64,000 nucleotides of DNA from Clostridia bacterium (GTDB taxonomy: Bacteria > Bacillota > Clostridia > Christensenellales > Aristaeellaceae): the NCBI GenBank assembly GCA_017519405.1, contig JAFWSH010000006.1, positions 9,284-73,283 on the forward strand, given 5' to 3'. The translations under genes were made by a program, and so were the position numbers. Every line of letters starts with the position of its first letter. The stretch's first letter is position 1. Positions 32,774 to 54,448 of the stretch are shown here, one piece after another. The notes under the pieces were generated by a model that ran no database searches, had not been told where the DNA came from, and was given only the letters and a program-made list of their open reading frames with translations.

Positions 32774-32776
32774 TTC

Positions 32777-33866: not shown

Positions 33867-33933
33867 AGGGCATCCCTCCTAAAAGCCCCCTCCCGCGGGC
33901 TGCGGGAGAGGGCGGTTGGTGCTGCGAGAGGCA

Positions 33934-34149: not shown

Positions 34150-34283
34150 ACACATACCTCCTTGTACGTGAAAGGGCCGCCGTTTCCGGCAGCCCAGGTG
34201 GAATGAATGCCTGTTCGGACTGGCAGCGCTCTTCACTGCCACGACAGGCGTATTATCTGGTTATTCAGTTGTTGGCAGGACCA

Positions 34284-35597
34284 TCAGAGCAGGTTGTCAT
34301 ACCCGTCTGTCAGCAGCGTATCGTCCGTCATATCCTCCAGAAGCGCCTCTTCATCCTCTTCTGTTACATCCATCTCCCAGACCTGGCTTTCTTCCTCCAG
34401 GCGTAGTTTCATCTGCCGGTGCAGATAGCTTTCGATGTGGAAGGCGTTCTTTGGATCGGAATCTGACAGATACCGGTAGTTGGGGTGTGCCGTGATGTCA
34501 TACTTGTCCGACAGGAAGGGCCGAACGCCGCGCAGCTGCAGAATGCACTTCCCGCCGTCCATCACAGCCAGCTCATCCATGGACATCAGGCTCTTGCCGA
34601 GCTTCTGGTAGTTCAAGCTGTGGGAGATTTCCCGGCCCCGGCTTTCACCGGTATTGAAGGTGTCGATGGTTTCCTTGCCCAGCAGTTCTTCCATCTCCTT
34701 CAGGGTGGTCTTTTCCTTTCCGCCCAGGAACAGCAGCGTATCGCAGTTGCCCACAATGGTATCCGCGTTGTCCTTGTAGATGGCTTTCAGCTGGGACTGG
34801 GCCTGCAAGACGATGCACGCGGAGATCTCCCGGCTGCGGATGGTGGCGATGAGCTTTTCAAAGTTCGGAATCTGTCCGATATTGGCAAACTCATCGATCA
34901 GGCACCGCACATGCACCGGGAGCCTGCCGCCGTAGACATCATCCGCCTTCTCGCAGAGCAGGTTGAACATCTGACTGTAGGCCATGCTGATCAGGAAATT
35001 GAAGCTGGCGTCCGTGTCGGACATGATCAGGAACAGGGCTGTCCGCTGGTCACCGATGGTGTCCAGGTGCAGCTCATCATAGGCGGTGATGTCCCGCAGC
35101 TCCTGAATATCGAAGACCGCCAGGCGCGCGCCGCAGCTGACGAGTATGCTCTTGGCCGTCTTGCCGGCAGCCATCCGATACTTCGCGTACTGCCTGACGG
35201 CAAAGTGCCCCGGTTTCTCCCTGGCAAGCTTTTCAAAGGCCAGATCCACCTCATTCCGGAAGTCCTCATCGTCCTCCCGGACCTCCATCTTGTTCAGCAT
35301 ATCGATCAGCTCAGAGAAGTTCTGACGCTCCGGGGGCAATTCATAATGAATGTACCCAATCAGCGCGATGTAGAGCAACGTTTCCGCCTTCACCCAGAAA
35401 TCCTCGCCGGCCTTGCCTTCACCCTTGGTATTGGAGATCAGGACCGTGACCAGCTTCAGGATGTCCTTTTCACTGTGAATGTAGGCGAAAGGATTGTAGT
35501 GCATCGACTTGCCGAAATTGATCGTATTGAAGGCGCGCACGTCATATCCGGCGGCGACCAGAAGCTTGCCGGTTTCAACGATCAGGGTCCCTTTGGG
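34284..35597 (-). pseudogene. virD4: VirD4/TraG-type coupling protein (T4CP), C-terminal 437 codons, severed from its N-terminus by the nested transposon
   Basis: Frame reads (stop TGA 35598-35600) PKGTLIVETGKLLVAAGYDVRAFNTINFGKSMHYNPFAYI...RCLIDEFANIG. There is no start codon or SD at the point where homology begins. It continues exactly from ...IVVTDPKG of the fragment at 53355-53894. Confidence 0.85.
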
Positions 35598-35643
35598 TCA
35601 AGTACTTTTACGCTGTTTTTTTCAGGAAATTTAAAAAAAACCT

Positions 35644-35814
35644 TTACGATGTTGGTTCACAAAGAGAATTTGAGCGAATCAGCTTCAAAACCTTGTCGTT
35701 CATGGTCGCTTTGCCCTTCTCCGCAAAGCGAAAGATGACCTTGTAGATCGTCTTGCCATATCTGATGGTCATTGCTGTTTTCAGCTCAGTCACTTCTTTC
35801 TTTTCCTTGTCCAT
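35644..35814 (-). CDS. tnpW: TnpW-like small protein (56 aa; below ORF-track cut-off)
   Basis: GAGGTG 7 nt before ATG 35814. MDKEKKEVTELKTAMTIRYGKTIYKVIFRFAEKGKATMNDKVLKLIRSNSLCEPTS resembles the transposon-encoded TnpW family (..IG.TTY.V...F.......T..DK(I/V)L.LI). It is the last gene before the element end, as in Tn4451. Confidence 0.6.
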   Translation of the reverse strand: MDKEKKEVTELKTAMTIRYGKTIYKVIFRFAEKGKATMNDKVLKLIRSNSLCEPTS

Positions 35815-35874
35815 TGGAATCACCTCTTTGTCTTACTCCCCGGCAGAGCCTTTCACAGCCCAGCCGGGGAGATT

Positions 35875-37515
35875 TTATTGTCGCTCCTGATCGTACTTTT
35901 TCTCCAGCACGGGGCTTTTCGCCACAGGCTGCTGCTCATCATCTTCCTGCGTCACCGCATCAATGGCAGCATTCATAACCTGTTCCAGCTCACGCCGGTT
36001 TTCCCGTACTTCCATCTGCTCTGAAAAGTCTTCCCGCTCCGGCAGCGCATCCGGGATCGCCTTGCGCGTCCAGTAGCGGAGCTTGCTCAGCTGATCCAGC
36101 TCTGCATGAATCTGTCCCAATTTGGGACGAAGTGATTCGTTCTGTTCTGTCAGCTCTTGCCGCTGTGCTTTCAGCTTCTTCACGCCGGCCTTGTCCAGGG
36201 GAAGGGAAACACCCAGCTTCTTCGAGAGTTTCTCGCGAAGGTAGGTTGCCTTGCGGAGCCGCTTCAGTTCATCGGCGTGTTCGGCCTGGAAGGCTTCGCG
36301 CCGGCCTTTGAAATGAATCCTGTCCAACTGATCCTGGAGAGGAGCAAGCTCTCTGTAATCCTCGATCGCTGTAAAGAAGTCATCGATATCACGAATCACT
36401 TGATTGTTGCTGCGGACATCGCCCTGCATCAGTTCAAGCTGAACCCTGGTGTTGGACAGTCGAAGCGCCAGATCTTCCACTGTAGTAATGCCGGTCTCTT
36501 TCATCAGAATGATCATCTTGGACATATCCTGCAGATCTCTGATGCCAGCCTTTTCACGTGCGTATTTACCCCAGCTCTCCCGGCCTGCTTCGCGCATGGC
36601 CCGGTAGCTGAGGATCACATCGGTCAGGGAATGAGTCTGCGGATTCTCCAGCACTTCCTGGTGGTGGATTGCTGCCATCAGTTCCGCGATCTTATCGCCC
36701 AGCTTCTTCGCTGCCCGTTTCAGAGAACCGAGAAGTCGATTGATGCTGAGAATCTCACGATTCTTTTCGCCCATCTCCGTGACGGTGCCTTTCCGCTCCA
36801 TGGCGGCTGCGGCGGGGCCGAGATGCCGTTGAGGCAGACGGTCTTCAATGCCTTGTCGCTCCAAAGAGCGCATGTCGATTCGCTCCGGCCTGCCAGCAGC
36901 TTCAAGGGCAGCGTTCTGCATCACTTCCCAGTCATGTCGCCAGATCTCGGCGTACTTGTGATCGTTCCAGTCTACAGTGTTGACGTTGCGGCGTTTCCAT
37001 TTCCCATTCTTGCCCTTGACACGGTTGCCTCGTTCATCCAGCACGTATTCCGTCCGGGTCTTATCGAGCCACTTGCCATGCTCGTCCATAGCCCGGAGAG
37101 TCAGCAGAAGATGAACATGGGGGTTGCCGTCGCCTTCGTCGTGATAGTACAGATCACAGATCATGCCTTTGCTGACAAACTCCTGCTGGCAGTAGTCCCG
37201 AATCAGCGCCAGGTTCTGCTCATACGTCAGTTCCTTCGGGAGAACAATGAGCATCCGTCGGGCCGTCTGAGCATCCTTTCTTTTCTCAGCGGCATCCACC
37301 GCATTCCAGAGTGCCTGGCTGTCAGCGTATTCCCGGGGAGCGTTGTCTGGCAGCATGACTTCCCGATAAACGACACGCTCCGGGCTGCTGTGTGGATGCT
37401 TCCATTCATGATCGCGCTCGGAGTACATTTTCTCTCCGGCGTTATAAGCTGCAGTAGCCATGACGGACTGATCTTTGCGGCCTATATACGATATGGAAAA
37501 CGTGGGACAGGGAAT
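35875..37515 (-). CDS. MobQ-type (MobA/MobL family) relaxase; first ATG at 37461 but homology starts upstream, probable ATT start at 37515
   Basis: AAYNAGEKMY (catalytic Tyr region), HDEGDGNPHVHLLLT (HxDx..NPHxH motif), long coiled-coil C-terminus. In-frame codons upstream of the ATG encode IPCPTFSISYIGRKDQSV, matching the family N-terminal strand. GGAGGTG 10 nt upstream of ATT 37513-37515. Confidence 0.8.
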   Translation of the reverse strand: MPCPTFSISYIGRKDQSVMATAAYNAGEKMYSERDHEWKHPHSSPERVVYREVMLPDNAPREYADSQALWNAVDAAEKRKDAQTARRMLIVLPKELTYEQNLALIRDYCQQEFVSKGMICDLYYHDEGDGNPHVHLLLTLRAMDEHGKWLDKTRTEYVLDERGNRVKGKNGKWKRRNVNTVDWNDHKYAEIWRHDWEVMQNAALEAAGRPERIDMRSLERQGIEDRLPQRHLGPAAAAMERKGTVTEMGEKNREILSINRLLGSLKRAAKKLGDKIAELMAAIHHQEVLENPQTHSLTDVILSYRAMREAGRESWGKYAREKAGIRDLQDMSKMIILMKETGITTVEDLALRLSNTRVQLELMQGDVRSNNQVIRDIDDFFTAIEDYRELAPLQDQLDRIHFKGRREAFQAEHADELKRLRKATYLREKLSKKLGVSLPLDKAGVKKLKAQRQELTEQNESLRPKLGQIHAELDQLSKLRYWTRKAIPDALPEREDFSEQMEVRENRRELEQVMNAAIDAVTQEDDEQQPVAKSPVLEKKYDQERQ

Positions 37516-37650
37516 TTCGTTCTCACCTCCGTTTCTCAGCGCTATGCGCTGTAAAGGGGTAGCTGACGCCAGTCAGCGCAGGGGCTTGCCCCTGTGATGC
37601 CACAAAGGCAGCGCCGACTGGCATCGAGCTCCCCGCAGGGGCCCTCGGAG

Positions 37651-37700
37651 AGCGCACTGTGTTCCGAAGGAACACATAAGTGCGCCCTCAACAAGTTGAG
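37651..37700 (+). promoter_or_regulatory. oriT of the nested transposon (MobQ / RSF1010-pIP501 type nick region)
   Basis: Inverted repeat GTGTTCC (37659-37665) / GGAACAC (37669-37675), followed immediately by A-TAAGTGCGCCCT (37677-37688), the conserved MobQ nic-region core. Further hairpins lie upstream (GCTGAC..GTCAGC, CAGGGG..CCCCTG) and downstream (CCCTCAAC..GTTGAGGG). Located just upstream of the MobQ relaxase gene. Confidence 0.75.
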
Positions 37701-37703
37701 GGA

Positions 37704-38069
37704 TCAGCTTGTTGCCGAAAACCGTTCCTCCGTCCGGGTGGCCTGCGGGGCGGTCTGCGGCGTGGTCCGGGCATTCTCAAACAGCTGCTCCATGGTGATC
37801 CTGTTCTCGCCGGAGCGGATTTCCCGCATCTGGGTCAGCAGCTTCTGAATGCCGGAGAAGCTGAACACATGGTTCAGGAAAAGCTTGATGTCTTCGTCGG
37901 TGAAGACTTCAGCCTTGTCGCCCAGGTGCATGGTCAGTTCGCCGCCACGCTGATAGATACTGTGGTTGCGATCCTTCCGTGCCTGAACTTTGATCTTTTG
38001 ATCCAGTTCTGCCTTTTGTGCCTCAATGCGCTGCATCGAAGCTTTCAGCTTATCCAACTGTTTGCTCAT
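37704..38069 (-). CDS. DUF3847 domain protein (usual partner of MobA/MobL relaxases in Firmicute elements)
   Basis: MSKQLDKLKASMQRIEAQKAELDQKIKVQARKDRNHSIYQRGGELTMHLG...FLNHVF is the typical DUF3847 coiled-coil plus C-terminal segment. Confidence 0.7.
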   Translation of the reverse strand: MSKQLDKLKASMQRIEAQKAELDQKIKVQARKDRNHSIYQRGGELTMHLGDKAEVFTDEDIKLFLNHVFSFSGIQKLLTQMREIRSGENRITMEQLFENARTTPQTAPQATRTEERFSATS

Positions 38070-38164
38070 CGGAATCCTCCTTCCTCATTGATACTTTTGC
38101 TGGCCAGCAAAGGAAAAGGCACCGGCTGTTTTGATCAGTCGATGCCCTCTGCTTTGATGGCCGT

Positions 38165-38464
38165 TCAAGTGTTGGTTCTGATGCCGAGTCCTGCTGCTTT
38201 CGCTTTCTCGCTGGCCGCACTCCGTTTTTCCTCGCTCATGGGCGGGAGAAGCCGGATGGACACACGATCCTTCTGAATCTCGTACTCGGCATAGTCCGGA
38301 TACTTCTGCTTGTCAACGCGCCGGCACACTTCCGGGTATCGGGTGGCAAACTCCCGCAGGCGTCTGCGCAGGCCAGGGTCGTATGTGCAGATGGTTACGG
38401 GATCGCGGCTCTGGTTGTAGAGCAGGACGGTCTCTTTTTCGTGCTTGGTGAGACGATAGGACAT
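38165..38464 (-). CDS. Hypothetical 99-aa protein of the transposon backbone
   Basis: GGAGG 7 nt before ATG 38464. MSYRLTKHEKETVLLYNQSRDPVTICTYDPGLRRRLREFATRYPEVCRRV... Family not recognised. Confidence 0.6.
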   Translation of the reverse strand: MSYRLTKHEKETVLLYNQSRDPVTICTYDPGLRRRLREFATRYPEVCRRVDKQKYPDYAEYEIQKDRVSIRLLPPMSEEKRSAASEKAKAAGLGIRTNT

Positions 38465-38525
38465 GGGAACCTCCTATTTCGATAACTTGTTTCATTTGGC
38501 TGAAATCTCGCCAAACTAATTGCAC

Positions 38526-38716
38526 CTATTCGTTCTATTCGTTAATTGCCAAAAAGCCCTTGATACATAAGGGATTTGAGCTACTTTGAAATGCAGTTCC
38601 TTCCAGAATCGCATTTTCCACCATTATCAATATATAGGCATCAATTTAATGGCGCATACTATATGTTGTATTAAACGCCCTTGAGGAAGAAAAACAATAA
38701 CGTCGAATAGAACGAA
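38526..38716. repeat. 9-mer repeats CTATTCGTT: two tandem direct copies plus an inverted 13-nt copy 160 bp away, bracketing the AT-rich divergent control region
   Basis: CTATTCGTT at 38526-38534 and 38535-38543. CGAATAGAACGAA at 38704-38716 is the exact reverse complement of TTCGTTCTATTCG at 38529-38541. The inverted copy ends 17 nt before the -35 box. Confidence 0.7.
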
Positions 38717-38732
38717 AGCAAAAAATACATTA

Positions 38733-38761
38733 TTGACAATGTTATAGTTTACATGTATACT
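38733..38761 (+). promoter_or_regulatory. Near-consensus sigma-70/sigma-A promoter of the peptide-rSAM-UvrA operon
   Basis: TTGACA (38733-38738), 17-nt spacer, TATACT (38756-38761). 30 nt upstream of ATG 38792. Lies in the AT-rich intergenic region. Confidence 0.7.
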
Positions 38762-38791
38762 GGCATCAACCTATAGAAGGAGGTGCAGTAC

Positions 38792-38974
38792 ATGGTCTCT
38801 TATTCTGGAGATGCGTACAATGCGCTTTACGGCAACATTACCCCCACAATGATGGCTGGTCCCCGCGAGAAGTGCATGTCTCAGTGCACTGGCTGTAAGT
38901 GCAGCTGCAGCTCTAAGTGCAAGTACACTGACAATCGCCCTGAGGTTACGGACGAAGAATGGGAGGTTCTGTAA
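38792..38974 (+). CDS. Cys-rich precursor-like peptide A (60 aa, 6 Cys)
   Basis: GAAGGAGG with 8-nt spacing to ATG 38792. MVSYSGDAYNALYGNITPTMMAGPREK-CMSQCTGCKCSCSSKCK-YTDNRPEVTDEEWEVL. Layout is leader / Cys core / acidic tail. Homologous to peptide B. Confidence 0.75.
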   Translation: MVSYSGDAYNALYGNITPTMMAGPREKCMSQCTGCKCSCSSKCKYTDNRPEVTDEEWEVL

Positions 38975-38975
38975 C

Positions 38976-39140
38976 ATGAGTGCAACCACGAACGAGTATG
39001 CCCAGATGTTCGGCAACATCTCTGATATGAGCAACATCTCCATGGCAAAGTGCGCCTGTGTGAAGTGCAACTCCTGCACTTGCGCCTGCTCCTGCTCCAG
39101 GTGCAAGCGGGCTCCTGAGAAGGAGGATATCGAATGGTAA
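38976..39140 (+). CDS. Cys-rich precursor-like peptide B (54 aa, 8 Cys; below ORF-track cut-off)
   Basis: GGGAGG (38961-38966) 9 nt before ATG 38976, 1 nt after the stop of peptide A. MSATTNEYAQMFGNISDMSNISMAK-CACVKCNSCTCACSCSRCK-RAPEKEDIEW. Its TAA (39138-39140) overlaps the rSAM ATG (ATGGTAA). Confidence 0.75.
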   Translation: MSATTNEYAQMFGNISDMSNISMAKCACVKCNSCTCACSCSRCKRAPEKEDIEW

Positions 39141-40540
39141 AGCTTTCTCGCTTTGCACATGAGTATGACCTCGGTGATGCGATAGCCCTTTATCACTCGC
39201 TGAGGATGAAACCTGTGTATTTGACGAGAAAGGCTTATGAGGACTTGCAGGTGTGGCTTGCAAGTCCTCTTTGCTCTACACCCGAAAATGCACCGGAGAA
39301 TCTGACCAACGAAGTCGCTGAACTGATAAAATGCAAGGTGCTTACCAAAACGGATGATGAAGATGATAAGGTGCTCAGGTTTATCCGCTCCAGAGCACCT
39401 GTCCCCGCTATTAGTGTCTGCTACATGATTCTAAGTGAGCAGTGCAATCTGGCCTGCAAATACTGCTTCCTCGGAAACAACGATGAAGAAAAACGGCGGC
39501 AGTTCTTGCTTGAGGATATGAGTGCTGAGACAGCAGATCAGGCAATTGATTTTTTCATCAGGCAGATGAAACTTTCTGATCTGGATTTTGAAGACGCAAA
39601 TCCGGTCGTGATTTTCTATGGCGGCGAGCCAATGGTCAATTTTCCGGTACTTGTTCACATTGCTGAAAGACTCAATGCACTCAGGAGTGTTGAGAAGTGC
39701 GTTAAGAATGTCGAGATGTCCATGGTCACGAACGGATTATTGCTGACTGAAGAACGCATTCTGAAGCTCAAGGAGCTCGGCGTCTCAATTGCTATCTCTT
39801 GCGATGGTTTTACCGATGCCGCGAACAATATGCGTGTTGATCTCGGTGGAAACCCCGTCTTTGCCCGTGTGCTTAAGACTCTAGACCTTTGCAAACGCTT
39901 GGGCGTAGACGTCGCACTCTCTGTGACACTGAGTGAGGAAACAATCAAAGACACCGTGAATATTCTGAATCTTGTAGACAATTACGGTGTCAAGTCCTTT
40001 GGGTTTAACATCTTGATGTCGAGTGATACATTCGTTCTTCCGGAAAGCTACAATGAAGCAGCAGCTCAATTCATCATTGATGAGTTTGTAGAGCTTCGGA
40101 AAAAAGGCATATACGAAGACCGTATGATGCGGAAACTCGACTCTTTCTCCAAGGCGCAGGTCTATTATTCTGACTGTGCCGCAACAGCGGGCGGACAGAT
40201 CGTTGTGGCACCTAACGGCCAGGTCGGCATCTGTCATGGATGCCTGTACGATAAAAAATACTTTGTCACTTCGATTTACGATCAATCATTTGATGCCACA
40301 AAGGATCCAACGTTTATCGAGTGGTCGCAGCTTACACCGCTGAACAAAGATTGTTGTCTCGACTGCCCGGCCCTTGGAATCTGCGGCGGAGGCTGCCCGA
40401 TCAATGCGATGCACCTAAAGCCCGGCAACACGATTCATTCCGTTGACGAGCGATTCTGCGTGCATGCCAAGAAGACGCTGGATTTCTTCATCCGTGATCT
40501 ATATCGCATCATATGCGAAAGCAGGGGTAAAAATGGCTGA
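39134..40540 (+). CDS. Radical SAM / SPASM-domain peptide-modifying enzyme with N-terminal RRE-like extension
   Basis: GAGAAGGAGGA SD. CNLACKYC (CX3CX2C). C-terminal full SPASM pattern: C-X18-C with GX4C (CAATAGGQIVVAPNGQVGIC), then CLDCPALGICGGGC (CX2CX5CX3C). About 100 aa N-terminal to the rSAM core, where RiPP-recognition elements normally sit. Confidence 0.9.
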   Translation: MVKLSRFAHEYDLGDAIALYHSLRMKPVYLTRKAYEDLQVWLASPLCSTPENAPENLTNEVAELIKCKVLTKTDDEDDKVLRFIRSRAPVPAISVCYMILSEQCNLACKYCFLGNNDEEKRRQFLLEDMSAETADQAIDFFIRQMKLSDLDFEDANPVVIFYGGEPMVNFPVLVHIAERLNALRSVEKCVKNVEMSMVTNGLLLTEERILKLKELGVSIAISCDGFTDAANNMRVDLGGNPVFARVLKTLDLCKRLGVDVALSVTLSEETIKDTVNILNLVDNYGVKSFGFNILMSSDTFVLPESYNEAAAQFIIDEFVELRKKGIYEDRMMRKLDSFSKAQVYYSDCAATAGGQIVVAPNGQVGICHGCLYDKKYFVTSIYDQSFDATKDPTFIEWSQLTPLNKDCCLDCPALGICGGGCPINAMHLKPGNTIHSVDERFCVHAKKTLDFFIRDLYRIICESRGKNG

Positions 40541-42671
40541 TGTCATTCGGGTTGAAGGAATCGAAACCAACAATCTTAGAGGCCTTGATGTTGAGCTTGA
40601 AAAAAGAGCTCTTAACCTGATTATCGGGCCATCCGGTAGTGGAAAGTCATCTTTAGCATACGATACAATTGCACAGATTGGTCAGCATGAATATATGGCC
40701 ATGTTTGCTGACGATGTTGCTGAACCCTCTTACAAGGTTAAGGGGTATCACAATATGGTTGTTGCGGTGCCGATCAGACAATCTAACAGCAACAATAATA
40801 TGCACTCAACCATTGGAACGTATTTCGGTCTTAACCGGAGTATCGCTTTCATTTTTGCGTCCATGACAGGTATCCCAGAGGAGCACTTCACATTAAACCG
40901 AGCTGCTAATCTGTGCGAAAACTGTCATGGACTTGGTTTTATCAGCGTTATTGACGAAAACAGGATTATCGATTACAGCCTTCCGATCTCACAGAATCCT
41001 TTCCGATGCTGGAATAAATTCAAAGATTTCTACCGCCAGATTCTTGTCGCTTACTGCCACGATGTAGGAATTGACCCGTCAAAAACATTCCGGCAGCTGT
41101 CGGAAAAAGAAAAGCATCTGCTTCTCTATGGTGAAGGGAAGACTAAGTACAAGTTCCTCTACAAGCGAACCAACGGAACCTCACAACGTACATCCTGCTA
41201 TTATGGCATCATGACTGGGAAAGCGATGATGCCAGATTACAGTACCGCGAGCAGGTTTTATAGCGAGAGGACTTGCCCATGTTGTGGAGGTCAGAAGTAC
41301 GGAGCTGAACAACGGCAGTACCTGTTTAACGGTCTGTCAATTGGCGACTTTATGACTATGCCCTTTGCGGAACTCATCAATTTCGTAGAGGAATCAAAGA
41401 AAAAGGTAAAGGATGTTCGTATCTCTTTTGCTTTCAATAGTCTCCACTCCTTTCTGAAAAAGGCTATTGATCTAAATCTGGGGCATCTGTTCTTCCATCG
41501 CGCAATACCGACTTTGTCTGGTGGAGAATTGCAGCGCCTGAGAATGGTGCAGGTTTTTAATGCGCAGCTTTCTGATATGCTGGTTGTCCTGGATGAACCT
41601 CTGGCAGGGTTGTCGGGACGCGAGAAGAAAGCAATCTATGAAAACATCATAGCTCTCTGTGACCGTCATACTGTTCTTGTGGTCGATCATAGCGACGTGT
41701 TTGTCAGCAAAGCCCGCAGAATCTATGCTCTTGGCCCAGGTGGCGGTTCAAAGGGCGGACAGATGATTGATGCTGCTCAATATATCCAGCAAGAGAGTCA
41801 ATCGCGCTCTTTGAGTGTGTTCAAGACTGATGCTATGCTACCAATAGAGGTATCAAGTCCTGTCTATCAATATCAAGGCACCAGAATCGCGATCATGCAG
41901 TCTGCTATGAATATGATCACCGGGCCTTCCGGGGTCGGAAAATCAACACTGCTTCGTGAGTATTTCCCGCAGGTTTTTGATGAGTACTTGTATATAAACC
42001 AGAAACCAATGATGGGAAACAAAACTTCCAGTGTTATTACAGCTCTGGATCTGTTTGGAAGAATCCAGGATCTATTTGCGAAGAAAACTGGGAAAGACCG
42101 GCGTTGGTTCTCCAACCAATCCGGCTGCGATGGAGCTTGCCCGGTTTGTGGTGGCGCCGGCTACATAGAGTACGGATACGATGCCAGGACAAAATCAATA
42201 CTGCCTTGCGAAGAGTGTGAAGGAACAGGATTCAACAAAGTTCTGAAGAAATATAAGATTGATGGCAAAACCATATTTGATATATGGAACATGACCATTG
42301 ATGAAGGTATTCAGTACTTTAGAAAGCTCGACTCCAAGATCAGTACTACCTTCGAAGAAGCATCTTCAATCCTCCTGGGGCACTTGAAGATTGGGCAACC
42401 TACTTCCACTCTTTCAGGTGGAGAAAATATCCGCATCAAGATCATGAAGGCTGCCAAATCAACAGCGAAGGTTCTCGGCATTGATGAACCGTTCAAAGGG
42501 TTAAGTCCATCTGAAATATATCTTGTCGCTTCTTTCTTTGATCGCATTCGAGCGAAAGGTAAAACGATTGTCGTTGTAGATCACTCAGAGGAAGCTGAGA
42601 GATACTTTGGACACAGGATTGTATTAGCACAGAAGGACGGCATACTAATAGAATCTCGGAGACAAATATAA
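40533..42671 (+). CDS. UvrA paralog (712 aa), class II-like: both ABC ATPase modules and Zn modules present, UvrB-binding domain absent
   Basis: ATG 40533 overlaps the rSAM stop by 8 nt. VEGIETNNLRGLDVELEKRALNLIIGPSGSGKSSLAYDT (compare UvrA ..THNLKNIDLDIPR.KL.V.TGLSGSGKSSLAFDT). FTLNRAANLCENCHGLGF and CPCCGGQKY Zn module. LSGGELQRLRM. Second Walker A ITGPSGVGKSTLL. CPVCGGAGY...CEECEGTGF. LSGGENIRIKI. The segment between LLFARVG-equivalent and FSFN-equivalent that carries Zn1 plus the UvrB-binding domain in UvrA is missing. Confidence 0.85.
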   Translation: MADVIRVEGIETNNLRGLDVELEKRALNLIIGPSGSGKSSLAYDTIAQIGQHEYMAMFADDVAEPSYKVKGYHNMVVAVPIRQSNSNNNMHSTIGTYFGLNRSIAFIFASMTGIPEEHFTLNRAANLCENCHGLGFISVIDENRIIDYSLPISQNPFRCWNKFKDFYRQILVAYCHDVGIDPSKTFRQLSEKEKHLLLYGEGKTKYKFLYKRTNGTSQRTSCYYGIMTGKAMMPDYSTASRFYSERTCPCCGGQKYGAEQRQYLFNGLSIGDFMTMPFAELINFVEESKKKVKDVRISFAFNSLHSFLKKAIDLNLGHLFFHRAIPTLSGGELQRLRMVQVFNAQLSDMLVVLDEPLAGLSGREKKAIYENIIALCDRHTVLVVDHSDVFVSKARRIYALGPGGGSKGGQMIDAAQYIQQESQSRSLSVFKTDAMLPIEVSSPVYQYQGTRIAIMQSAMNMITGPSGVGKSTLLREYFPQVFDEYLYINQKPMMGNKTSSVITALDLFGRIQDLFAKKTGKDRRWFSNQSGCDGACPVCGGAGYIEYGYDARTKSILPCEECEGTGFNKVLKKYKIDGKTIFDIWNMTIDEGIQYFRKLDSKISTTFEEASSILLGHLKIGQPTSTLSGGENIRIKIMKAAKSTAKVLGIDEPFKGLSPSEIYLVASFFDRIRAKGKTIVVVDHSEEAERYFGHRIVLAQKDGILIESRRQI

Positions 42672-42720
42672 ACGCTACATGATAGACACCGGGCGCACAT
42701 CTGTAGTTGGGGGTGACGAC

Positions 42721-47345: not shown

Positions 47346-48585
47346 AGTCAAGCTTATAGATATATGTGATGACTTGAGCGATGGACTCCATGCTGCCCCC
47401 GTTTTTAATCCTCAAGGGGAATACCTTTTTGTGAATGCTATCAATCTCGAAAATGGATATATCATTGACACAGGGGATGGGAAGCGCGCTGATTATTCCG
47501 AATATGTAAAATACAGGATTGACTTGAATGACAGAACAATACTGTATTCAATTGATGGTACAATCGGAAAGATAGCGCGATATCGTGGTGAAAAAGTCAT
47601 TCTGGGAAAAGGGGCTTGTTATATCAAGCTTAAAGAGACTGTAAATGCTGATTACATCTATTACTTACTCCAATCATCTATATTTCAAGCATACTTAAAA
47701 AGCATGACCACAGGTTCGACAATACACCATATATCACTCGAAACTATGCGGAACTTTAGCTTTGCATTACCGGATCGGGTAATTCAAGATTGTATTGCTA
47801 AAGTTCTATTAGTCATAGATCAGAAAATCGATCTTAATACTCGCATCTGTACTGAGCTGGAATCCATGGCCCGCACCCTCTATGACTACTGGTTTGTGCA
47901 GTTTGATTTCCCGGATGAAAACGGCAAGCCCTACCGCAGCAGCGGCGGGGAAATGATGTGGTGCCAGGAGCTGGGGCGTGAGGTGCCGAAGGGATGGAAG
48001 TTGGGGACAATTGGTGACCTGGGAGAGGTTGTTTCAGGAGCCACCCCTTCAACAACAGAAGACAGTTATTATACTGATAGCGGTATAGCTTGGATTACTC
48101 CGAATGACCTCTCAAACAATGGACAAAACATGTTCATTGCTCATGGTGAAAGAGATATTACAGAAGCCGGATTACAAAGCTGCTCTTCTGTACTCATGCC
48201 AGAAGGCAGCGTTCTGATGAGTTCCAGAGCTCCTATTGGATATCTTGCAATTGCCGCAAATGACGCATGTACAAACCAGGGATTCAAATCTATCATCTGC
48301 AATAAGGGATTTCTGTCTCTGTATGTTTACTATACGCTAAAGAGAAATGTGGATGGAATTGCAAGGCAGGGGGTCGGCACCACCTTCAAAGAGGTATCGA
48401 GAGAAGCGCTTACAAGGTACCCTGTTCTTCTCCCGCCACAATGTATCGCTGAAAGATTTGAATACCTACTGCAACCAGTAGGAAAAGCGCGGCTAAAGTG
48501 CGAGCAGGAAGCAAGCGAATTAGTTCATCTCCGCGACTGGCTCCTGCCGATGCTGATGAACGGGCAAGCAAAGGTGGTACTATAA
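47338..48585 (+). CDS. hsdS: Type I R-M specificity subunit (two target-recognition domains)
   Basis: ATG overlaps the hsdM stop by 8 nt. Two TRDs separated by the conserved helix LNTRICTELESMARTLYDYWFVQFDFPDENGKPY, and C-terminal conserved helix CEQEASELVHLRDWLLPMLMNGQ. Confidence 0.9.
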   Translation: MNKVKLIDICDDLSDGLHAAPVFNPQGEYLFVNAINLENGYIIDTGDGKRADYSEYVKYRIDLNDRTILYSIDGTIGKIARYRGEKVILGKGACYIKLKETVNADYIYYLLQSSIFQAYLKSMTTGSTIHHISLETMRNFSFALPDRVIQDCIAKVLLVIDQKIDLNTRICTELESMARTLYDYWFVQFDFPDENGKPYRSSGGEMMWCQELGREVPKGWKLGTIGDLGEVVSGATPSTTEDSYYTDSGIAWITPNDLSNNGQNMFIAHGERDITEAGLQSCSSVLMPEGSVLMSSRAPIGYLAIAANDACTNQGFKSIICNKGFLSLYVYYTLKRNVDGIARQGVGTTFKEVSREALTRYPVLLPPQCIAERFEYLLQPVGKARLKCEQEASELVHLRDWLLPMLMNGQAKVVL

Positions 48586-48608
48586 AACAGAAAGCGAGGA
48601 AAGAATTC

Positions 48609-48995
48609 ATGGAAAGAGATATGGATTTGGTTCGTCTGATCCTGCTGGAAATCGAGAAAGAGTACAAATCAACAGTCCTTTATGATTTGAAGATCGATGG
48701 CTATGACATGGAAACGGTAGCCTATCATTGCAAAATACTTCATGAGGCAAAACTGATTTCAGCATATAAAGGCATGTATGCCGATAATGCCCTTCAGGAC
48801 TTCGCAGTAGGATCTCTTACATGGGAAGGTCATGACTATCTTGATAAAGTTCGTGACAACAGCCGTTGGGGAAAGATAAAGAAATTACTGAAGGAGAAGA
48901 CCCTCCCGCCAACAATTGAGGTTATCAAAATGCTGGCTGATGGTCTGATCAGCGCTGCAACTGCCGCTGCTGTCAGCAGTATTACCGGGGCATAA
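48609..48995 (+). CDS. DUF2513 domain protein
   Basis: GAGGA 9 nt before ATG 48609. MDLVRLILLEIEKEYKSTVLYDLKIDGYDMETVAYHCKILHEAKLISA....SLTWEGHDYLDKVRD is typical DUF2513 (winged-helix-like). Confidence 0.75.
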   Translation: MERDMDLVRLILLEIEKEYKSTVLYDLKIDGYDMETVAYHCKILHEAKLISAYKGMYADNALQDFAVGSLTWEGHDYLDKVRDNSRWGKIKKLLKEKTLPPTIEVIKMLADGLISAATAAAVSSITGA

Positions 48996-49055
48996 CAGAA
49001 ATATTCCTTTATCAGTTTTGAATGGCGTAGAGGCGGCACTCTCCAACAAGTGTTG

Positions 49056-49325
49056 TTAATCCAGCGCCCACTCCACGCCTTCCTCGTCATCCATCCATTC
49101 TTGTGAATCAACCAGCGCTTCAACGCCCACACTGAGTTCCCCAAAGGGTTTCGATCCATCATACGCCGGCTCCACACAGACAACCTGTGTGGGGCCGTTT
49201 CTGCGCCAGTTCAAATCATCATATCCGTTGCGCTCCATGGCGATCTCCACGGCTTCCTCTTCGCTCTCTGCTTCGATAGCGTCCTCAAATACCAACTGCC
49301 GGCACAAAGTCACGTTCCACATCAT
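49056..49325 (-). CDS. Hypothetical acidic 89-aa protein (transposon backbone)
   Basis: Start overlaps the upstream stop. Composition is normal. Family not recognised. Confidence 0.5.
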   Translation of the reverse strand: MMWNVTLCRQLVFEDAIEAESEEEAVEIAMERNGYDDLNWRRNGPTQVVCVEPAYDGSKPFGELSVGVEALVDSQEWMDDEEGVEWALD

Positions 49326-49762
49326 GTTTTTTCCGTCTCCTTCCTGCCAGTGGGAGTGGCGTTTCGATTGAGCAGCTTCAGTAAAATATCCTGATGTACG
49401 CCTTGCAAAATGAACTTGGAAATCAGATTGCTGTCGGTGTTACGGGCAACAAGTACATGCTTCCGGTATTCGTCCTCAAAGTCGGGATCATCGAGTGAGG
49501 GCAGTTCATCGCAGACACGGCGATTCCGCAGATACCTCTTGGCCTTCCGGTCAAACCCTCTCAGATACTGCATGAGCATCCTGGACTTTTCCAGACTTTT
49601 TAGCTGGTCTGGATGTGCCATACGAAGGTACAGGTAGTGCAAGGTGCCGTATTCGCTAATTCCTTTAAGCTCGGGCAGTTCAGGGCTGTAGGGAATGTAG
49701 ATGCTTCCGCAGAGGCGGTAGTTGATGCCGTTGATGGTGACGTTCTTCTTCATTTTCGTCAT
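49322..49762 (-). CDS. Hypothetical 146-aa protein, distantly TnpV-like N-terminal pattern
   Basis: AAGGAG 9 nt before ATG 49762. INGINYRLCGSIYIPYSPELPELKGISEYGTLHYLYLRMAHPDQLKSLEKSRMLMQYL loosely parallels the TnpV G.YY.PDL....KP.G..G....YL....P pattern. Confidence 0.55.
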   Translation of the reverse strand: MTKMKKNVTINGINYRLCGSIYIPYSPELPELKGISEYGTLHYLYLRMAHPDQLKSLEKSRMLMQYLRGFDRKAKRYLRNRRVCDELPSLDDPDFEDEYRKHVLVARNTDSNLISKFILQGVHQDILLKLLNRNATPTGRKETEKT

Positions 49763-49851
49763 GTTGATCTCTCCTTGTGTTTATGGGAATGGAAAAGCCG
49801 CCTCCGAAGAAGCGGCTGGGTGACAAAGTGGGTGTTAAACCGGGTGATAAA

Positions 49852-50154
49852 TCAGGCTGTGATGAAGTCCAGCACTCTGTACAGCAGGTCGGCGGCTTTG
49901 CCGATGATCCAGCTGGCAAGGTGCGGTGCTGCCAAAAGGAACAGGCCCAGGCCCAGACATTGATACGCCATTGCCGATGGAGCACCGGCAATCCACTCGA
50001 TGGCGGCACCAAAAATGAACAGCCCTGCGACCAGGTTTGTGACCATAGAACCGATCCCGATCACGATGGCACAGGCCGCATGACACAGGAACAGTGCCAG
50101 GGCCGCGGGCATGGCAATCAGCTTCAACGGCAGTCTGATGATGCGTCTGATCAT
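49852..50154 (-). CDS. Small integral membrane protein, paralog of 9813-10103
   Basis: AGGAGG 7 nt before ATG 50154. MIRRIIRLPLKLIAMPAALALFLCHAACAIVIGIGSMVTNLVAGLFIFGAAIEWIAGAP... The longer 137-aa track ORF has no SD. Confidence 0.65.
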   Translation of the reverse strand: MIRRIIRLPLKLIAMPAALALFLCHAACAIVIGIGSMVTNLVAGLFIFGAAIEWIAGAPSAMAYQCLGLGLFLLAAPHLASWIIGKAADLLYRVLDFITA

Positions 50155-50294
50155 AGTCGGCACCTCCTGCATCCATTCTTTGTGCAAAACTCCAGTCTTG
50201 AGTCTATCCGTTTCTGCTCCGGGCGGGCAACGGTGATCTTGCCCACCCGGAGTATCGGTTCCCAAAGGTCTGGTCTGGAACTTACTTTTTGAGC

Positions 50295-50708
50295 TCAGAT
50301 GAAGATCAATTCAGCCAGGATGATTTCTTCCGCTCTATTCCTGATGCTGTTCATTCTCCCGACCCACAGCATCTGGTCCTGCGCCTTCATCCTCTCATCA
50401 ACGCCCTCGCTGCACTGCATCTGCCGGATGATGACTTCCAGCCGGGCTTGGGCTTGCTCGTTCAACTCAGCCAAGGTCTGATACAGCTTGCCGGACAGGA
50501 TCAGCCGGGTGTACATTCCGGGCCTGTGCTCCTTCAGGTAGTTCCGATGCATCCGGCCCCATTTCCCGATGGGCTTGGAATCCGCTTCCGGGGCAGTGAG
50601 ATCCGGGAAGTAGTAGTCACCGTGGAGCGTGTAATCCAGTCCGTTCTGATTGTCGTGAATGTGCCGGGGAAGATGGGGATTCATGTTCATACTGGTTTCC
50701 ATAGCCAT
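50295..50708 (-). CDS. tnpV: TnpV-family protein
   Basis: Immediately downstream of the large serine recombinase, as in Tn4451. GDYYFPDLTAPEADSKPIGKWGRMHRNYLKEHRPGMYTRLILSGKLYQTLAELNEQAQARLE. Confidence 0.8.
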   Translation of the reverse strand: MAMETSMNMNPHLPRHIHDNQNGLDYTLHGDYYFPDLTAPEADSKPIGKWGRMHRNYLKEHRPGMYTRLILSGKLYQTLAELNEQAQARLEVIIRQMQCSEGVDERMKAQDQMLWVGRMNSIRNRAEEIILAELIFI

Positions 50709-50726
50709 TCTCCTTTCGCCGTTTGG

Positions 50727-53270
50727 TCATACTGCCTGCTGTGCTGATGGTTTATGCGCTGCGTAGTAGTCTCTTCGGTGAGCAAGATGCTTCTCACGTT
50801 TGGCTGCGGCTATCGGATCGGTGAGGGCTGCTTGGTTGAGCTTTCGCCTGCTCCTGGTGGTTGCTTCGACTTGCTTTGCCCGCTCGGCAGTAAGCCTCTC
50901 CGCCGCAACGGGATCTGTTTCAGCCTGTGCCCGAAGCTCAGCGCGCCGCCGTTTCTGCCGCTCGTTATTCTTACGCTGCTTTTCCCGCTGCTTTGCCTCA
51001 TATTCAGCGGCAAACTCAGGATCATTGGCGGCTCTCTGCTTCTGTCGTTCTGCAAATGCTCTGCCATAGCTGCGTCGGCGTTCTATCTTTTCTTCCAGAT
51101 CTCTGGCTGCTTCAGGATCGGTTTTGGCCCGTTCCGTAAGATCATCCATCTTCGCCTTTGCTCTTGCATTAGCTGCTGCATTCTTCGCTTTGAGCGCCTC
51201 TGCAAATGCAGGATCTGAAGCTGCCTTTTCTTTGGTCTTTGTCCGGTACTGTGCCTGCTTTGCCCTCCCGTAGGCTCTGCGTTTTTCCAGCTCTGCGGCC
51301 GCGGCGGGATCGCTGTCAGCAATCTGGGCAAGCTCTTTCTGACTCATGGATAGGAATGGGTTCGGTGGAACATATGTGCCATTCGCAATGGCTTCCTGCT
51401 TTTTCTCTTCTTGCCGCTTCTGCTGGTAGGCCCGGTTGTATGCCCGCCTCTTTTCCTTTTCCGCTTCGAGCTTCGCAGCGATTTCCGGATCGTGCTCAGC
51501 CTGTTCGATGAGCTCAGCCCTTCTCCGGGCTTTTCGTTCTTTTTCCCTCTGTTTCGACTGCTCGTCCAGGTTACGCTTCCGTTCTGCTTTCTCCGCAGCC
51601 TTTCTTGCCCTGGTCTGGGCGATTTCAAAGGCAATAGCTTCCGGTGCGGGCTGGTAGCTTCCGATGAAGGAGAAGGTGATGTCGATCTGCTGGATGCGTT
51701 CGCCGGTCTTGGTATCGGTCTCGGCTTGATGAACATCGACCCGGTCGATCAGTTCAAAGACCATGTCTTGGGTCAGCTCGTCGAATTCCCGGTATTTGCG
51801 GATGGCTCTGAGGAAACGGTCAGGGTCTGATCTTCCGGCCTTCGTGTCTTCGATCTTTGTCTCCAAAGATGTGATCTTCGATTCCAGATCTTCCTGCTCC
51901 TGGTCATACTGGGCAATCAGTCTGTCCACCTGTCTGGCCGGCATATGGCCAAGCTGCCGATCCTCATAAAGACCGCGAATCAGATTGTCGAGTTCCGCAA
52001 TCCGTTTCCTGGCCGCAGCGAGATCTCTTTTGCTTTCGTTCAGCTCACTGCTGTGCTGTTCAGCCCACTGCTGATTGAGCTTTGTCCTGAAGGATTCTTC
52101 GTCCTCAAGCGCTTCTGCGGCAACAACCTTGAGTGCCAGCCTCACAGCCTCGGTCAGTGCCGTTGCGGAGATGGAGTGGCTGGTGCATTCCTGATAGATA
52201 CTTTTGTAATGCCGGCATCGGAAAGAGTAGTTGTAGTAAGCTCCGTTCGTTTTGTTGCGGATCAGAGCCAGCTTCGCGCCGCAGTCTGGGCAGAAAGCCA
52301 GGCCGAATAACATGTGCGTATGCGTCCCGCTGGGGCTGCGCCTGGTGCATCTCTTCCGCAGCTTCTGAGCCTGATCCCAGATGTCCTGATCGATGATTGC
52401 CTCGTGCGTGTCCGGGAAGAAAAGGCGTTCATCCCGTGTGGTTGGTCGGCGCTTTTTACTGCGGAAGTTGACTCGCACTGACTTACCCAGAATCGTATGG
52501 CCGAGATACTCCTCCCGATCAAGGATTGTGCGGATCGCATGAGGGGACCACAAACATGGATCTATGTACGATCTGCTGTGGACTGCCTCCGGGTGATACT
52601 TGGCGGCATAGGCTGATGGAATCAGAATCTTTTCCTCTGTCAGCATTCTGGCAATACCCGGCGCGTTCATACCCTGAGCGGCCAGTTCAAAGATTCTTCT
52701 GACCACCGCCGCCGCTTCATCATCAACCACAAGGGTCTGCTTGTCTCCCTGAAGCCTGATGTATCCATATGGCACCGAACCGCTGCACCGCAATCCTTCT
52801 GACATTCTGGATTTGAAGATCGCACAGATCTTCCGGCTAGTATCCTTGGCATACCACTCGTTGATCACATTCAGGAACGGGGTAAACTCATTCTCTGTCG
52901 GGTTGTCGCTGTCCACATTGCTGTTGATAGCGATGAATCGGACACCTTTCTCAGGAAAGTGGATCTCAGTGTAAAGGCCGACTTCCAGATAGTTTCTTCC
53001 GAATCGGCTCATGTCCTTGACGATCACGGTGCTGATCAGACCGGCATCAATATCGGCCAGCATCTGCATGAAGCCAGGTCGGTTGAAGTTAGTGCCGGTG
53101 TAGCCATCATCGGAATAGTGCCGAATGTTCGTGAAACCATGCTGCCTCGCGTAGTCTTCCAGATACCTCTTCTGGTTCTGAATCGAGTTGCTTTCCCCGG
53201 CAGAGTCATCATCTCTGGAAAGCCGCTCATATAACGCTGTAATGCCGCTTTCTCGCTTGGTTTGGTTCAT
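50727..53270 (-). CDS. tnpX: Large serine recombinase (TnpX-like) with a 255-aa repetitive basic C-terminal tail
   Basis: GGGGGTG 7 nt before ATG 53270. Resolvase domain ITALYERLSRDDD (catalytic Ser), IVKDMSRFGRNY. Recombinase domain. Zn-ribbon CPDCGAKL...FRCRHY. Coiled-coil/DUF4368-like region. Then seven DP..AA-type repeats (50730-51494). Confidence 0.9.
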   Translation of the reverse strand: MNQTKRESGITALYERLSRDDDSAGESNSIQNQKRYLEDYARQHGFTNIRHYSDDGYTGTNFNRPGFMQMLADIDAGLISTVIVKDMSRFGRNYLEVGLYTEIHFPEKGVRFIAINSNVDSDNPTENEFTPFLNVINEWYAKDTSRKICAIFKSRMSEGLRCSGSVPYGYIRLQGDKQTLVVDDEAAAVVRRIFELAAQGMNAPGIARMLTEEKILIPSAYAAKYHPEAVHSRSYIDPCLWSPHAIRTILDREEYLGHTILGKSVRVNFRSKKRRPTTRDERLFFPDTHEAIIDQDIWDQAQKLRKRCTRRSPSGTHTHMLFGLAFCPDCGAKLALIRNKTNGAYYNYSFRCRHYKSIYQECTSHSISATALTEAVRLALKVVAAEALEDEESFRTKLNQQWAEQHSSELNESKRDLAAARKRIAELDNLIRGLYEDRQLGHMPARQVDRLIAQYDQEQEDLESKITSLETKIEDTKAGRSDPDRFLRAIRKYREFDELTQDMVFELIDRVDVHQAETDTKTGERIQQIDITFSFIGSYQPAPEAIAFEIAQTRARKAAEKAERKRNLDEQSKQREKERKARRRAELIEQAEHDPEIAAKLEAEKEKRRAYNRAYQQKRQEEKKQEAIANGTYVPPNPFLSMSQKELAQIADSDPAAAAELEKRRAYGRAKQAQYRTKTKEKAASDPAFAEALKAKNAAANARAKAKMDDLTERAKTDPEAARDLEEKIERRRSYGRAFAERQKQRAANDPEFAAEYEAKQREKQRKNNERQKRRRAELRAQAETDPVAAERLTAERAKQVEATTRSRRKLNQAALTDPIAAAKREKHLAHRRDYYAAHKPSAQQAV

Positions 53271-53354
53271 ATGTTTTCACCCCCTTCCTTCGCTTACAAA
53301 CCCTGTAGCCGCTGTTTACAAACGTCCGGCACATGGACAGCTTACCAGATTCTG

Positions 53355-53894
53355 CCCCTTCGGGTCGGTCACCACAATGGAAGTGCCTTTCGTCTTCGTG
53401 CACTGCATGATGTTCGGCTTGATGAAGAACCGCGTTTTGCCGGAGCCGGAACCGCCCACAACCAGCACGTTCTTGTTCCGGGCGTTCCGGGGATCCTTGG
53501 GGCGGCTGCGCATGGTCAGGCTTTCCGTCTTCGTCAGGATGATGTTGTTCCACGGATCCGGATCGATAAACGGCGCGATGTCCGCGTGCGTGCCCCAGCG
53601 GGCGGAGCCGTACTCGATGTTGTGCCGGTACTTCTTGGCGTTCTTGCCCTTCTGGTAGACAGCGAACCGGAGCAGACCCCCGACCAGCAGCCCGACCAGC
53701 AGATCAACGGGATGGAAGCTGGGCAGCAGGGACTGAAAGGCCGCCGAGAAGCCGTCCAGCAGATGCAGCAGCTTCTGGGAGGCGTCCGCGCCTTCCGCCA
53801 GCCGCCAGGCCTCGCCAAGCTTTGTGGCATAGAGGCCGATCAGGACATAGGGCAGATTCAGGATCAGCTGCTTTTTGAGCCGCTGTGTGTTCAT
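53355..53894 (-). pseudogene. virD4: VirD4/TraG-type coupling protein, N-terminal 180 codons (TM region + Walker A), severed by the nested transposon
   Basis: MNTQRLKKQLILNLPYVLIGLYATKLG..(two TM)..NVLVVGGSGSGKTRFFIKPNIMQC...SIVVTDPKG, then 12 transposon-derived codons (QNLVSCPCAGRL) and stop at 53316. ATG overlaps the pcfB stop (ATGA). Confidence 0.85.
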
Positions 53895-54397: not shown

Positions 54398-54404
54398 CTC
54401 CCGG

Positions 54405-54448
54405 TGAAGGAAAGGACCCGGGGACGCTTATCCGGCATCCCCGGGTCC
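54405..54448 (-). terminator. Rho-independent terminator candidate after the 788-aa surface-protein gene
   Basis: GGACCCGGGGA (54414-54424) pairs with TCCCCGGGTCC (54438-54448). On the minus strand it is followed by TTTCCTTC. Confidence 0.55.

Follow-up and report, generated by a model that had tools for sequence, protein, structure and literature searches.

How a conjugation gene comes to lie in two pieces 17,766 bp apart, and what this means for the DNA on both sides of the break, is the question raised by a 64,000-nucleotide stretch of Clostridia bacterium contig JAFWSH010000006.1 (hereafter the window). The divided gene encodes a type IV coupling protein (T4CP; VirD4/TraG) of an integrative and conjugative element (ICE), and a gene for a TnpX-like large serine recombinase (LSR) lies in the DNA between the pieces. 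This insert is very probably a Tn6104-like integrative mobilisable element (IME), whose own TnpX-type LSR inserted it into the T4CP gene of an ICE of the Tn5252/CTn4 type. Both the nesting of an IME in an ICE coupling gene and the hypothesis that its excision acts as a switch have already been published, and the locus is a well-resolved new example. Nested IME-in-ICE structures decide the mobility of the ICE and which cargo travels.

Split coupling-protein gene

The N-terminal fragment of the T4CP was read on the minus strand from 53894 to 53355, i.e., 180 codons ending in IVVTDPKG. It contains two hydrophobic (transmembrane) segments and the Walker A motif VVGGSGSGKTRF (GGSGSGKT). Past DPKG, the open reading frame (ORF) enters element DNA, where it meets a stop at 53318-53316 after 12 unrelated codons, QNLVSCPCAGRL. 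The C-terminal fragment, 437 codons on the minus strand from 35597 to 34284, opens with PKGTLIVETGKLL and contains the Walker B motif LIDEFANIG. An in-frame TGA (35600-35598) is placed directly before it, and it has no start codon or Shine-Dalgarno (SD) sequence of its own. The break falls between Walker A and Walker B, and both fragments are free of extra stops and frameshifts. The first-pass annotation of this DNA had described the two parts, their common strand, the unrelated codons and the missing start, and the reading frames and Pfam matches agreed with it. Its distance of 17,766 bp also held, as the length of the insert with one copy of the AA core counted.

In Pfam, PF02534 (T4SS-DNA_transf) was matched by the N fragment at profile positions 30-82 and by the C fragment at 78-442. 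The TraG-D_C and TrwB_AAD_bind domains were also matched in the C fragment, which scored 473 bits to NCBIfam NF045973 (CD1115 family, VirD4-like) against a cut-off of 250. No second T4CP gene was found within the window.

A single join of both fragments at DPKG gives a T4CP of 614 aa. The joined protein was searched against 5.8 billion proteins, which returned thousands of uninterrupted homologues, and the best 120 were inspected. All of them are single proteins of 604-617 aa, except for one of 827 aa with an internal duplication, and the closest intact homologue showed 96% identity across 100% of length. Across the break point, uninterrupted relatives read VVTDPKGTLIVETG. DPKG was followed by T in 120/120 of the best homologues (TL; TI in one), and TDPKGTL[IMV][IV]E[TC]G was found in 118/120. 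The supposition that the fragments form one coupling protein was thus correct, i.e., they align contiguously to one protein which is uninterrupted in all 120.

The same was found at the DNA level in an uninterrupted relative, L001, with the gene order DUF3801-T4CP-Maff2-TrbL_2-PrgI-VirB4. Positions 1-1679 of L001 align to window positions 55031-53356, and 1672-6219 to 35597-31047. The two fragments therefore abut. Around the junction L001 reads GAT CCG AAA GGT ACG, and owing to these synonymous differences from the window, L001 alone failed to define the crossover core.

Seen simply as two ORFs, the fragments could be taken for naturally separate genes with products of 180 and 437 aa, i.e., a split T4CP, or the break for a mis-assembly. 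This explanation is extremely improbable. The 120 best homologues are contiguous across DPKG/T, and the C fragment lacks a start behind its TGA, which argues against separate genes. Mis-assembly was ruled out by recurrence in independent assemblies and in unitigs: 16 contigs carry the identical N fragment, 7 carry the identical recombinase, and both junctions were spanned by unitigs from four independent gut metagenomes with zero mismatches and with depth equal to the cargo. Both versions are refuted.

In the homologue of 827 aa (P0002), a block of ~210 aa is duplicated internally. The repeat starts at ..HSSYVVTDPKG, the motif targeted by the IMEs, and may stem from faulty assembly or be the footprint of a recombination event.

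Crossover core and target specificity

About 35 (>30) independent junctions were compared, the left ones from loci of LSR relatives and the right ones from metagenome contigs and Logan unitigs. The left-junction loci (L002, L022-L031, L034-L038, L041, and L042) all follow immediately on DUF3801 and a truncated T4CP gene, on the same strand, and they cover nine LSR lineages. The base before AA is G, C or A and follows the target, and the base after AA is element-specific. With the slash placed between AA and the element, the left junctions with their LSR identities read GAC CCG AA/GGGGCAGAATCTGG in L022 (100%), GAT CCG AA/GGGGCAGAATCTGG in L002 from a Christensenella metagenome-assembled genome (MAG; 97%), GAC CCC AA/GGGGCAGAATCTGT in L034-L038 (at least 90%, the same 90% cluster), GAC CCG AA/GGGGCAGAATCTGT in L023-L027 (89%), GAC CCG AA/GGGGCAGATTCTGT in L028 (79%), GAC CCC AA/GGGCTATAATGTG in L029 (65%), GAT CCG AA/CCGTCGGAACG in L030 and L031 (50%), GAC CCG AA/GGGGTAGAATAAA in L041 (47%), and GAC CCA AA/GAGAAACACAT in L042 (45%). 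In the LSR scan of genome contigs, the 97% relative in the Christensenella MAG was the only locus.

For right junctions, metagenome contigs were scanned for exact matches to the last 21 nt of the element, and 19 loci were obtained. T4CP C-terminal fragments followed in 12/19, with A or G after AA, and they represent at least four T4CP types, i.e., PKGTLIVETG, PKGTLITECG, PKGSLLVECG, and PKGSILIECG. Right junctions in the metagenome loci and Logan unitigs read CCC AA on the element side, followed by A, G or T. In Logan unitig loose ends from single metagenomes, the left end was joined to both LVILDPKG and SFVVTDPKG genes and the right end to PKGSVLIECGKL.

The crossover lies at the dinucleotide AA, i.e., positions 1 and 2 of the DPKG Lys codon. 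It was assigned as the core because AA is the only two bases common to both sides. These two bases form a 2-bp direct repeat at the element ends, and target-dependent variation bounds it on both sides. Around AA, the circle joint TG-CCC-AA-GGG-CA is palindromic, though imperfectly, and the target reads GnCCCn-AA-nGGGnC.

Three other cores were rejected. For GA, the core of Tn4451, the nearest joins give a frameshift or an extra Gln (..PKGQTL..), which was seen in 0/120 of the best intact homologues. CC was excluded because the third base of the Pro codon varies (G/C/A) among left junctions sharing the element end, and GG by the right junctions AA/GTG (L004, L020).

Integration is site-specific and not by chance, because nine LSR lineages (45-100%) use the same dinucleotide in several T4CP subfamilies. 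The specificity is strong, not absolute: the other 7/19 right junctions enter non-T4CP DNA (AA/TGG.., AA/GTG.., AA/GGG..), which counts against an exclusive target. These junctions and the Tn4451-like backbone genes, i.e., a TnpX-like LSR, TnpV and TnpW, would fit a low-specificity transposon which landed in a T4CP gene by chance. Such a landing is very improbable. The same codon dinucleotide is used in at least 17 left loci of the nine lineages and in the 12 right loci, in T4CP subfamilies with differing flanks, and the core is AA, not the GA of Tn4451 (PMC5704250). Chance is refuted by this recurrence of the site.

In L003, L004/L020, L007, L012, L015, and L016, the element's right end, GTACTTGACCCAA, is joined to non-T4CP DNA. 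These junctions look like secondary integration sites.

Recombinase and relaxase of the insert

The insert can be classified as an IME because no coupling or mating-pore protein was present among its scanned ORFs, i.e., none of them matched PF02534 or VirB4, and it has a relaxase of its own. The nested mobilisable element with a serine recombinase, which had been proposed from the first reading, is borne out by this gene content.

The LSR is the sole large serine recombinase gene of the insert and is placed at one end, with its ATG 85 bp inside the left junction. Its DUF4368 domain (PF14287) scored 63 bits, and a weak similarity to the XisF family was found in NCBIfam. The first-pass annotation had put tnpW at one end of the insert and the TnpX-like gene at the other, which is right, but had the latter pointing at the junction, which is not. 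The 5' end of the LSR gene adjoins the junction, and the gene reads into the element, co-directional with the T4CP gene.

The relaxase scored 255 bits to MobA_MobL and 185 bits to NCBIfam MobQ, which is just under the cut-off of 200 bits. It is of the MobA/MobL (MOBQ) type, which Tn6104 and the IME_Class_5 elements of streptococci also have.

Comparison with known elements

Tn6104 was described by Brouwer et al. in 2011 within Tn6103, a CTn5-like ICE of Clostridioides difficile R20291 (PMC3158075). Its genes are a TnpX-related recombinase, TnpV, cargo and, at the right end, mobA/mobL; its repeat is 2 bp long, and its excision was demonstrated (PMC3158075). For Tn6103 no transfer was detected, "possibly because of the insertion" (PMC3158075). 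Tn6104 and IME_Sco1050_traG_site1/2 are listed in Table 1 of PMC5704250 as serine-recombinase IMEs in an "internal site of traG (VirD4 CP) from Tn5252-related ICEs". Coluzzi et al. (2017) placed 12/16 streptococcal serine-integrase IMEs within traG, maff2 or snf2, and in their supplement the traG IMEs have a Ser_1 integrase and a PF03389 MOBQ relaxase, with no coupling protein (PMC5357655). Induction of the ICE was proposed to trigger IME excision and so restore the conjugation module (PMC5357655; the switch model also in PMC5704250). Tn1549_traG IMEs in S. suis were reported by Libante et al. (PMC7168690).

The element studied here resembles Tn6104 in its terminal TnpX-related LSR with adjacent TnpV, multi-gene cargo, MobA/MobL near the other end, 2-bp repeat and position inside an ICE traG/VirD4 gene (target: PMC5704250), and in both cases the host ICE is presumed transfer-defective. 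The cargo of Tn6104 consists of regulators, an ABC transporter, sigma factors and toxin-antitoxin genes, whereas a type I restriction-modification (RM) system, a radical-SAM cluster and a UvrA-like ATPase are carried here. The host ICE lineage and the bacterial host also differ, and excision was demonstrated for Tn6104 only. The two are likened by architecture, not by site or recombinase sequence.

With the traG IMEs of streptococci and S. suis, the element shares a single serine integrase, a PF03389 relaxase of ~530-550 aa, the lack of an own coupling protein and the site-specific disruption of VirD4 in Tn5252-/Tn1549-type ICEs, and the same model of induction, excision and repair is proposed. 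The streptococcal elements are 6-14 kb long and come from Bacilli, whereas this one has 17.8 kb and belongs to gut Clostridia-type elements. They use two traG sites, and the DPKG site is not equated with either.

Tn4451/Tn4453 (TnpX, TnpV, TnpW, TnpY, TnpZ, catP) also have a TnpX-type LSR with DUF4368, TnpV and TnpW homologues and a 2-bp crossover. In both cases the left end of the element begins with the LSR gene, which allows the circle joint to supply its promoter, and a circular intermediate belongs to Tn4451/Tn4453. The parallel to Tn4451 is good for these genes but not for the mode of integration: Tn4451/Tn4453 have a GA core and numerous sites (PMC5704250), whereas the core here is AA with one strongly preferred target. 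The catP cargo is replaced by the RM, radical-SAM and UvrA-like genes. The nearest plasmid-borne relatives of the LSR showed 38-51% identity over the N-terminal 63% of length.

The interruption of a gene by a large-serine-recombinase element, with restoration by precise excision, is also a feature of the skin element in sigK (SpoIVCA), the fdxN element (XisF) and the "active lysogeny" of phages. In those systems host developmental or competence genes are interrupted, often by immobile elements, whereas here the break is in a gene of a second mobile element, and the inserted DNA can itself be transferred.

The element is best assigned, as a new member, to the serine-integrase IMEs that target traG, i.e., a Tn6104-like element in another ICE lineage and with other cargo. 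This assignment is made because the architectural features tested for the group were all found, and the GA core and multi-site insertion of Tn4451 were not. In the literature on traG IMEs (PMC3158075, PMC5357655, PMC5704250, PMC7168690), the base-level AA/DPKG site, its use by LSRs of 45% identity, and the geometry of read-through and junction promoter were not found stated.

Predicted expression and excision

The T4CP is established as a requirement of conjugation. In its present state, the ICE would not couple DNA to the secretion channel and would be transfer-defective, because Walker A and Walker B are separated, the C fragment has no translational start, and conjugation requires the T4CP. 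If attL and attR were exchanged at AA, a circle of 17,766 bp would be set free, and the exchange would leave GAC CCG AAA GGG ACC (D-P-K-G-T), i.e., an intact T4CP of 614 aa. Restoration of the ORF by precise excision had been anticipated in the first-pass annotation, and the join at AA indeed gives the D-P-K-G-T of intact homologues. The predicted attB after excision is GTGACCGACCCGAAAGGGACCCTGATC and the predicted circle joint is GTACTTGACCCAAGGGGCAGAATCTGG; sequences of the predicted excision products are also given as GACCCGAAAGGGACC and TTGACCCAAGGGGCAGAATC.

The LSR gene starts 45 bp after the truncated T4CP ORF on the same strand, with an SD-like GGAAGGGGGTG in front. No terminator was predicted between the stop of the T4CP N fragment and the LSR ATG, and the sole terminator-like site is upstream of DUF3801. 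The integrated LSR gene seems to have no good promoter of its own; in this state the -35 position holds CCGACC or CGACCC. Transcription of the ICE transfer operon should enter the LSR gene because of the common strand, the short distance and the absence of a predicted terminator. By this read-through, induction of the ICE would couple excision of the IME with repair of the T4CP. Contigs of four metatranscriptomes cross 53359 unbroken, from the T4CP N fragment into the LSR gene of close relatives, and are compatible with read-through.

After excision, a different promoter is predicted. The circle would juxtapose TTGACC from the right end, 17 bp, and TGG-TAAGCT from the left end, i.e., a promoter existing only in the circular form, and this joint promoter would drive the LSR for re-integration. 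A TAnnnT hexamer 13-14 nt after AA is kept in the lineages of 89, 79, 65, and 50% LSR identity (L023, L028, L029, L030). The same logic has been published for Tn4451: Lyras and Rood are said to have found in 2000 that the circular intermediate of Tn4451 forms the tnpX promoter (as cited in PMC13023037 and PMC9765467). The IME would move through the repaired ICE machinery by its MOBQ relaxase and would be re-inserted in the T4CP gene of a recipient ICE.

These steps may be combined into one reading, in which a large LSR clade (45-100%) is specialised on the DPKG dinucleotide, each member has its LSR gene immediately behind the truncated T4CP gene and transcribed together with it, and the IME is a transcriptionally slaved switch: both elements transfer, after which the promoter at the circle joint brings about re-integration into the T4CP gene of whatever ICE the recipient has. 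We consider this reading possible, but tentative. As an excision-dependent switch on ICE transfer, the idea was already in the first-pass annotation; it stands as a hypothesis, and it is not new (PMC5357655, PMC5704250).

Several observations weigh against the switch. The -10 hexamer is weak, with 3/6 matches, and is rescued only by the extended TG. The RNA contigs are unstranded, and DNA carry-over is possible. The empty site and the circular form, both of which had been suggested for a search, were not found in Logan, JGI metagenome or viral contigs. The Logan contigs of the four carrier metagenomes held neither of them, and no joint matching excision or circularisation was present in the Logan contigs of four DNA and four RNA runs. 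JGI metagenome contigs, scanned for exact matches to the empty site ACCGAYCCSAARGGGACCCTGATCGT, gave 0 hits, as did a search of viral contigs for the circular joint, where neither element end was present. Because contigs drop rare variants, the missing empty site and circle are weak negative evidence. Depth was even over the T4CP flanks and the cargo in the Logan metagenomes, and occupancy of the site there is therefore close to complete. Excision by the LSR may also depend on a directionality factor, TnpV or another.

The even depth and the missing empty site and circle would also be expected of a parasitic dead end, in which the IME permanently disables the ICE, excises rarely or never in response to the ICE, and spreads through other co-resident conjugative elements or vertically. 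No transfer was seen for Tn6103 with Tn6104/5/6 (PMC3158075), decayed IMEs and ICEs are reported to be numerous in streptococci (PMC7168690), and in one metagenome these element ends are found in several different T4CP genes, so that alternative helpers may be disabled too. However, the T4CP fragments have no decay and are 96% identical to an intact homologue, the remaining transfer genes of the window are full-length, and excision of Tn6104 was demonstrated (PMC3158075). The strict co-orientation, the lack of a terminator and the conserved junction-promoter geometry fit regulated excision. A dead end is rather unlikely on this evidence.

If the switch reading is true, IMEs of this kind would be obligate, reversible passengers of many gut ICE families, ferrying defence and peptide cargo. 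The exact AA core, the attB and attTn sequences and the predicted read-through and junction promoter make the published switch model directly testable. In annotation, a truncated "~190-aa VirD4" ORF followed by a recombinase gene marks an occupied site and should not be annotated as a decayed ICE.

In bovine-gut and digester metatranscriptomes (X25, X26, X28, X31), the LSR/TnpV and relaxase modules of close relatives were present and the window cargo of 39.5-48.7 kb was absent. Because these contigs show backbone modules and not this cargo, the backbone circulates there with other cargo.

Cargo of the insert and host element

The coordinates of the features are collected in Table 1. The cargo comprises type I restriction and a peptide-maturation cluster; in relatives, methylases and aminoglycoside-resistance genes are carried. 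Small ORFs accompany the TnpV-like ORF on the minus strand. No cat gene is present in the cargo. In PADLOC, besides type I RM, only weak mad3/mad8 and viperin-like matches were obtained, and no known defence system was identified from these.

The two Cys-rich small ORFs (e.g., CACVKCNSCTCACSCSRCK) lie immediately 5' of the radical-SAM/SPASM maturase gene, which is followed by the UvrA-paralogue ATPase. This part, 38783-42671, looks like a mobile cluster for a ribosomally synthesised and post-translationally modified peptide, with a possible self-protection ATPase. No family assignment was found for the two peptides.

Table 1. Coordinates of the split gene, the insert and the host element in the window.
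Feature	Position	Strand	Remarks
Host ICE backbone	8340..64000	-	left limit approximate; runs past the right window end
T4CP C fragment, (..K)GTLIVETG..	34284..35592	-	Walker B, TraG-D_C
attR core AA	35593..35594	-	base after AA varies with target (A/G/T) in 19 right-end junctions
TTGACC, -35 candidate from right end	35596..35601	-	sequence reading
TnpW	35644..35823	-	26 bits
MobA/MobL (MOBQ) relaxase, 528 aa	35875..37461	-	PF03389 family
DUF3847 protein	37704..38069	-	under Pfam cut-off; usual partner upstream of relaxase
Two Cys-rich small ORFs	38783-38974, 38976-39140	+	63 and 54 aa
Radical SAM/SPASM peptide maturase, FibroRumin-type	39134-40540	+	TIGR04136, 806 bits
UvrA-paralogue ABC ATPase, cargo	40443..42671	+	true start probably downstream of 40443
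hsdR	42679-45714	+	type I RM cargo
hsdM	45702-47345	+	type I RM cargo
hsdS	47338-48585	+	type I RM cargo
DUF2513 protein	48498..48995	+	
TnpV-like small protein	49322..49762	-	weak, under Pfam cut-off
TnpV	50295..50708	-	PF14198, 155 bits
LSR, TnpX-like, 847 aa	50727..53270	-	Resolvase, Recombinase, Zn_ribbon_recom, DUF4368
-10-like hexamer TAAGCT	53339..53344	-	preceded by TGG, 14 nt inside left end; sequence reading
attL core AA	53359..53360	-	base before AA follows target, base after follows element
T4CP N fragment (VirD4/TraG, CD1115 family)	53359..53894	-	ends ..VVTDPK; ORF continues to stop at 53316

The host element is assigned, by its gene content, as a Firmicutes ICE of Tn5252/CTn4 (CD1115) type. 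The transfer module of the Tn5252 superfamily/CTn4 was found with CD1115 VirD4, Maff2 (141 bits), SNF2, DUF3801, TrbL_2, PrgI (110 bits), VirB4 and CD1107-like genes. The ICE genes of the window include ParB (63045-63971), a sortase, SpaA-type adhesins, DUF3801, T4CP, Maff2, TrbL_2, PrgI and a VirB4-like ATPase. Two NlpC/P60 hydrolases, a CD1107-like protein, a topoisomerase, YodL, an SNF2 protein of 2408 aa, a primase-like protein and a MobA/VirD2 relaxase are also encoded. All of them are full-length apart from the T4CP. No integrase of the ICE was found within the window, and the ICE continues past its right end.

Window positions 1-8020 (plus strand) have a lower GC content (0.46-0.52) and encode large surface proteins with BspA-type leucine-rich repeats, Big_2, Listeria-Bacteroides repeats and a subtilase domain. 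This part is probably chromosomal or ICE accessory DNA, with the left boundary of the ICE at about 8.0-8.3 kb.

Relatives at other sites

A 39%-identical LSR is encoded on the Kurthia gibsonii plasmid pND2a (L032; NZ_CP147848, 8549-10878), after a T4CP fragment which breaks at ..FKLAAG/. This break marks another integration site within coupling-protein genes, distinct from the first and on a plasmid of a Bacillales host. In pND2a, a CatB-related acetyltransferase gene is placed ~2 kb downstream of the LSR gene, past an IS1182 transposase gene.

In L039/L040 (P0138), an LSR of 46% identity adjoins an ICE-type SNF2 helicase gene, and an MmeI-type restriction-modification enzyme is carried. The location is consistent with the snf2 target of streptococcal IMEs. 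On the Klebsiella pneumoniae IncC plasmid NZ_CP070578 (L033, 5974-12580), i.e., a proteobacterial conjugative plasmid, an LSR of 41% identity was found together with MobA/MobL and TnpW in the backbone order of the insert, and the cargo of this relative is aph(2'')-IIa and aac(6')-Im.

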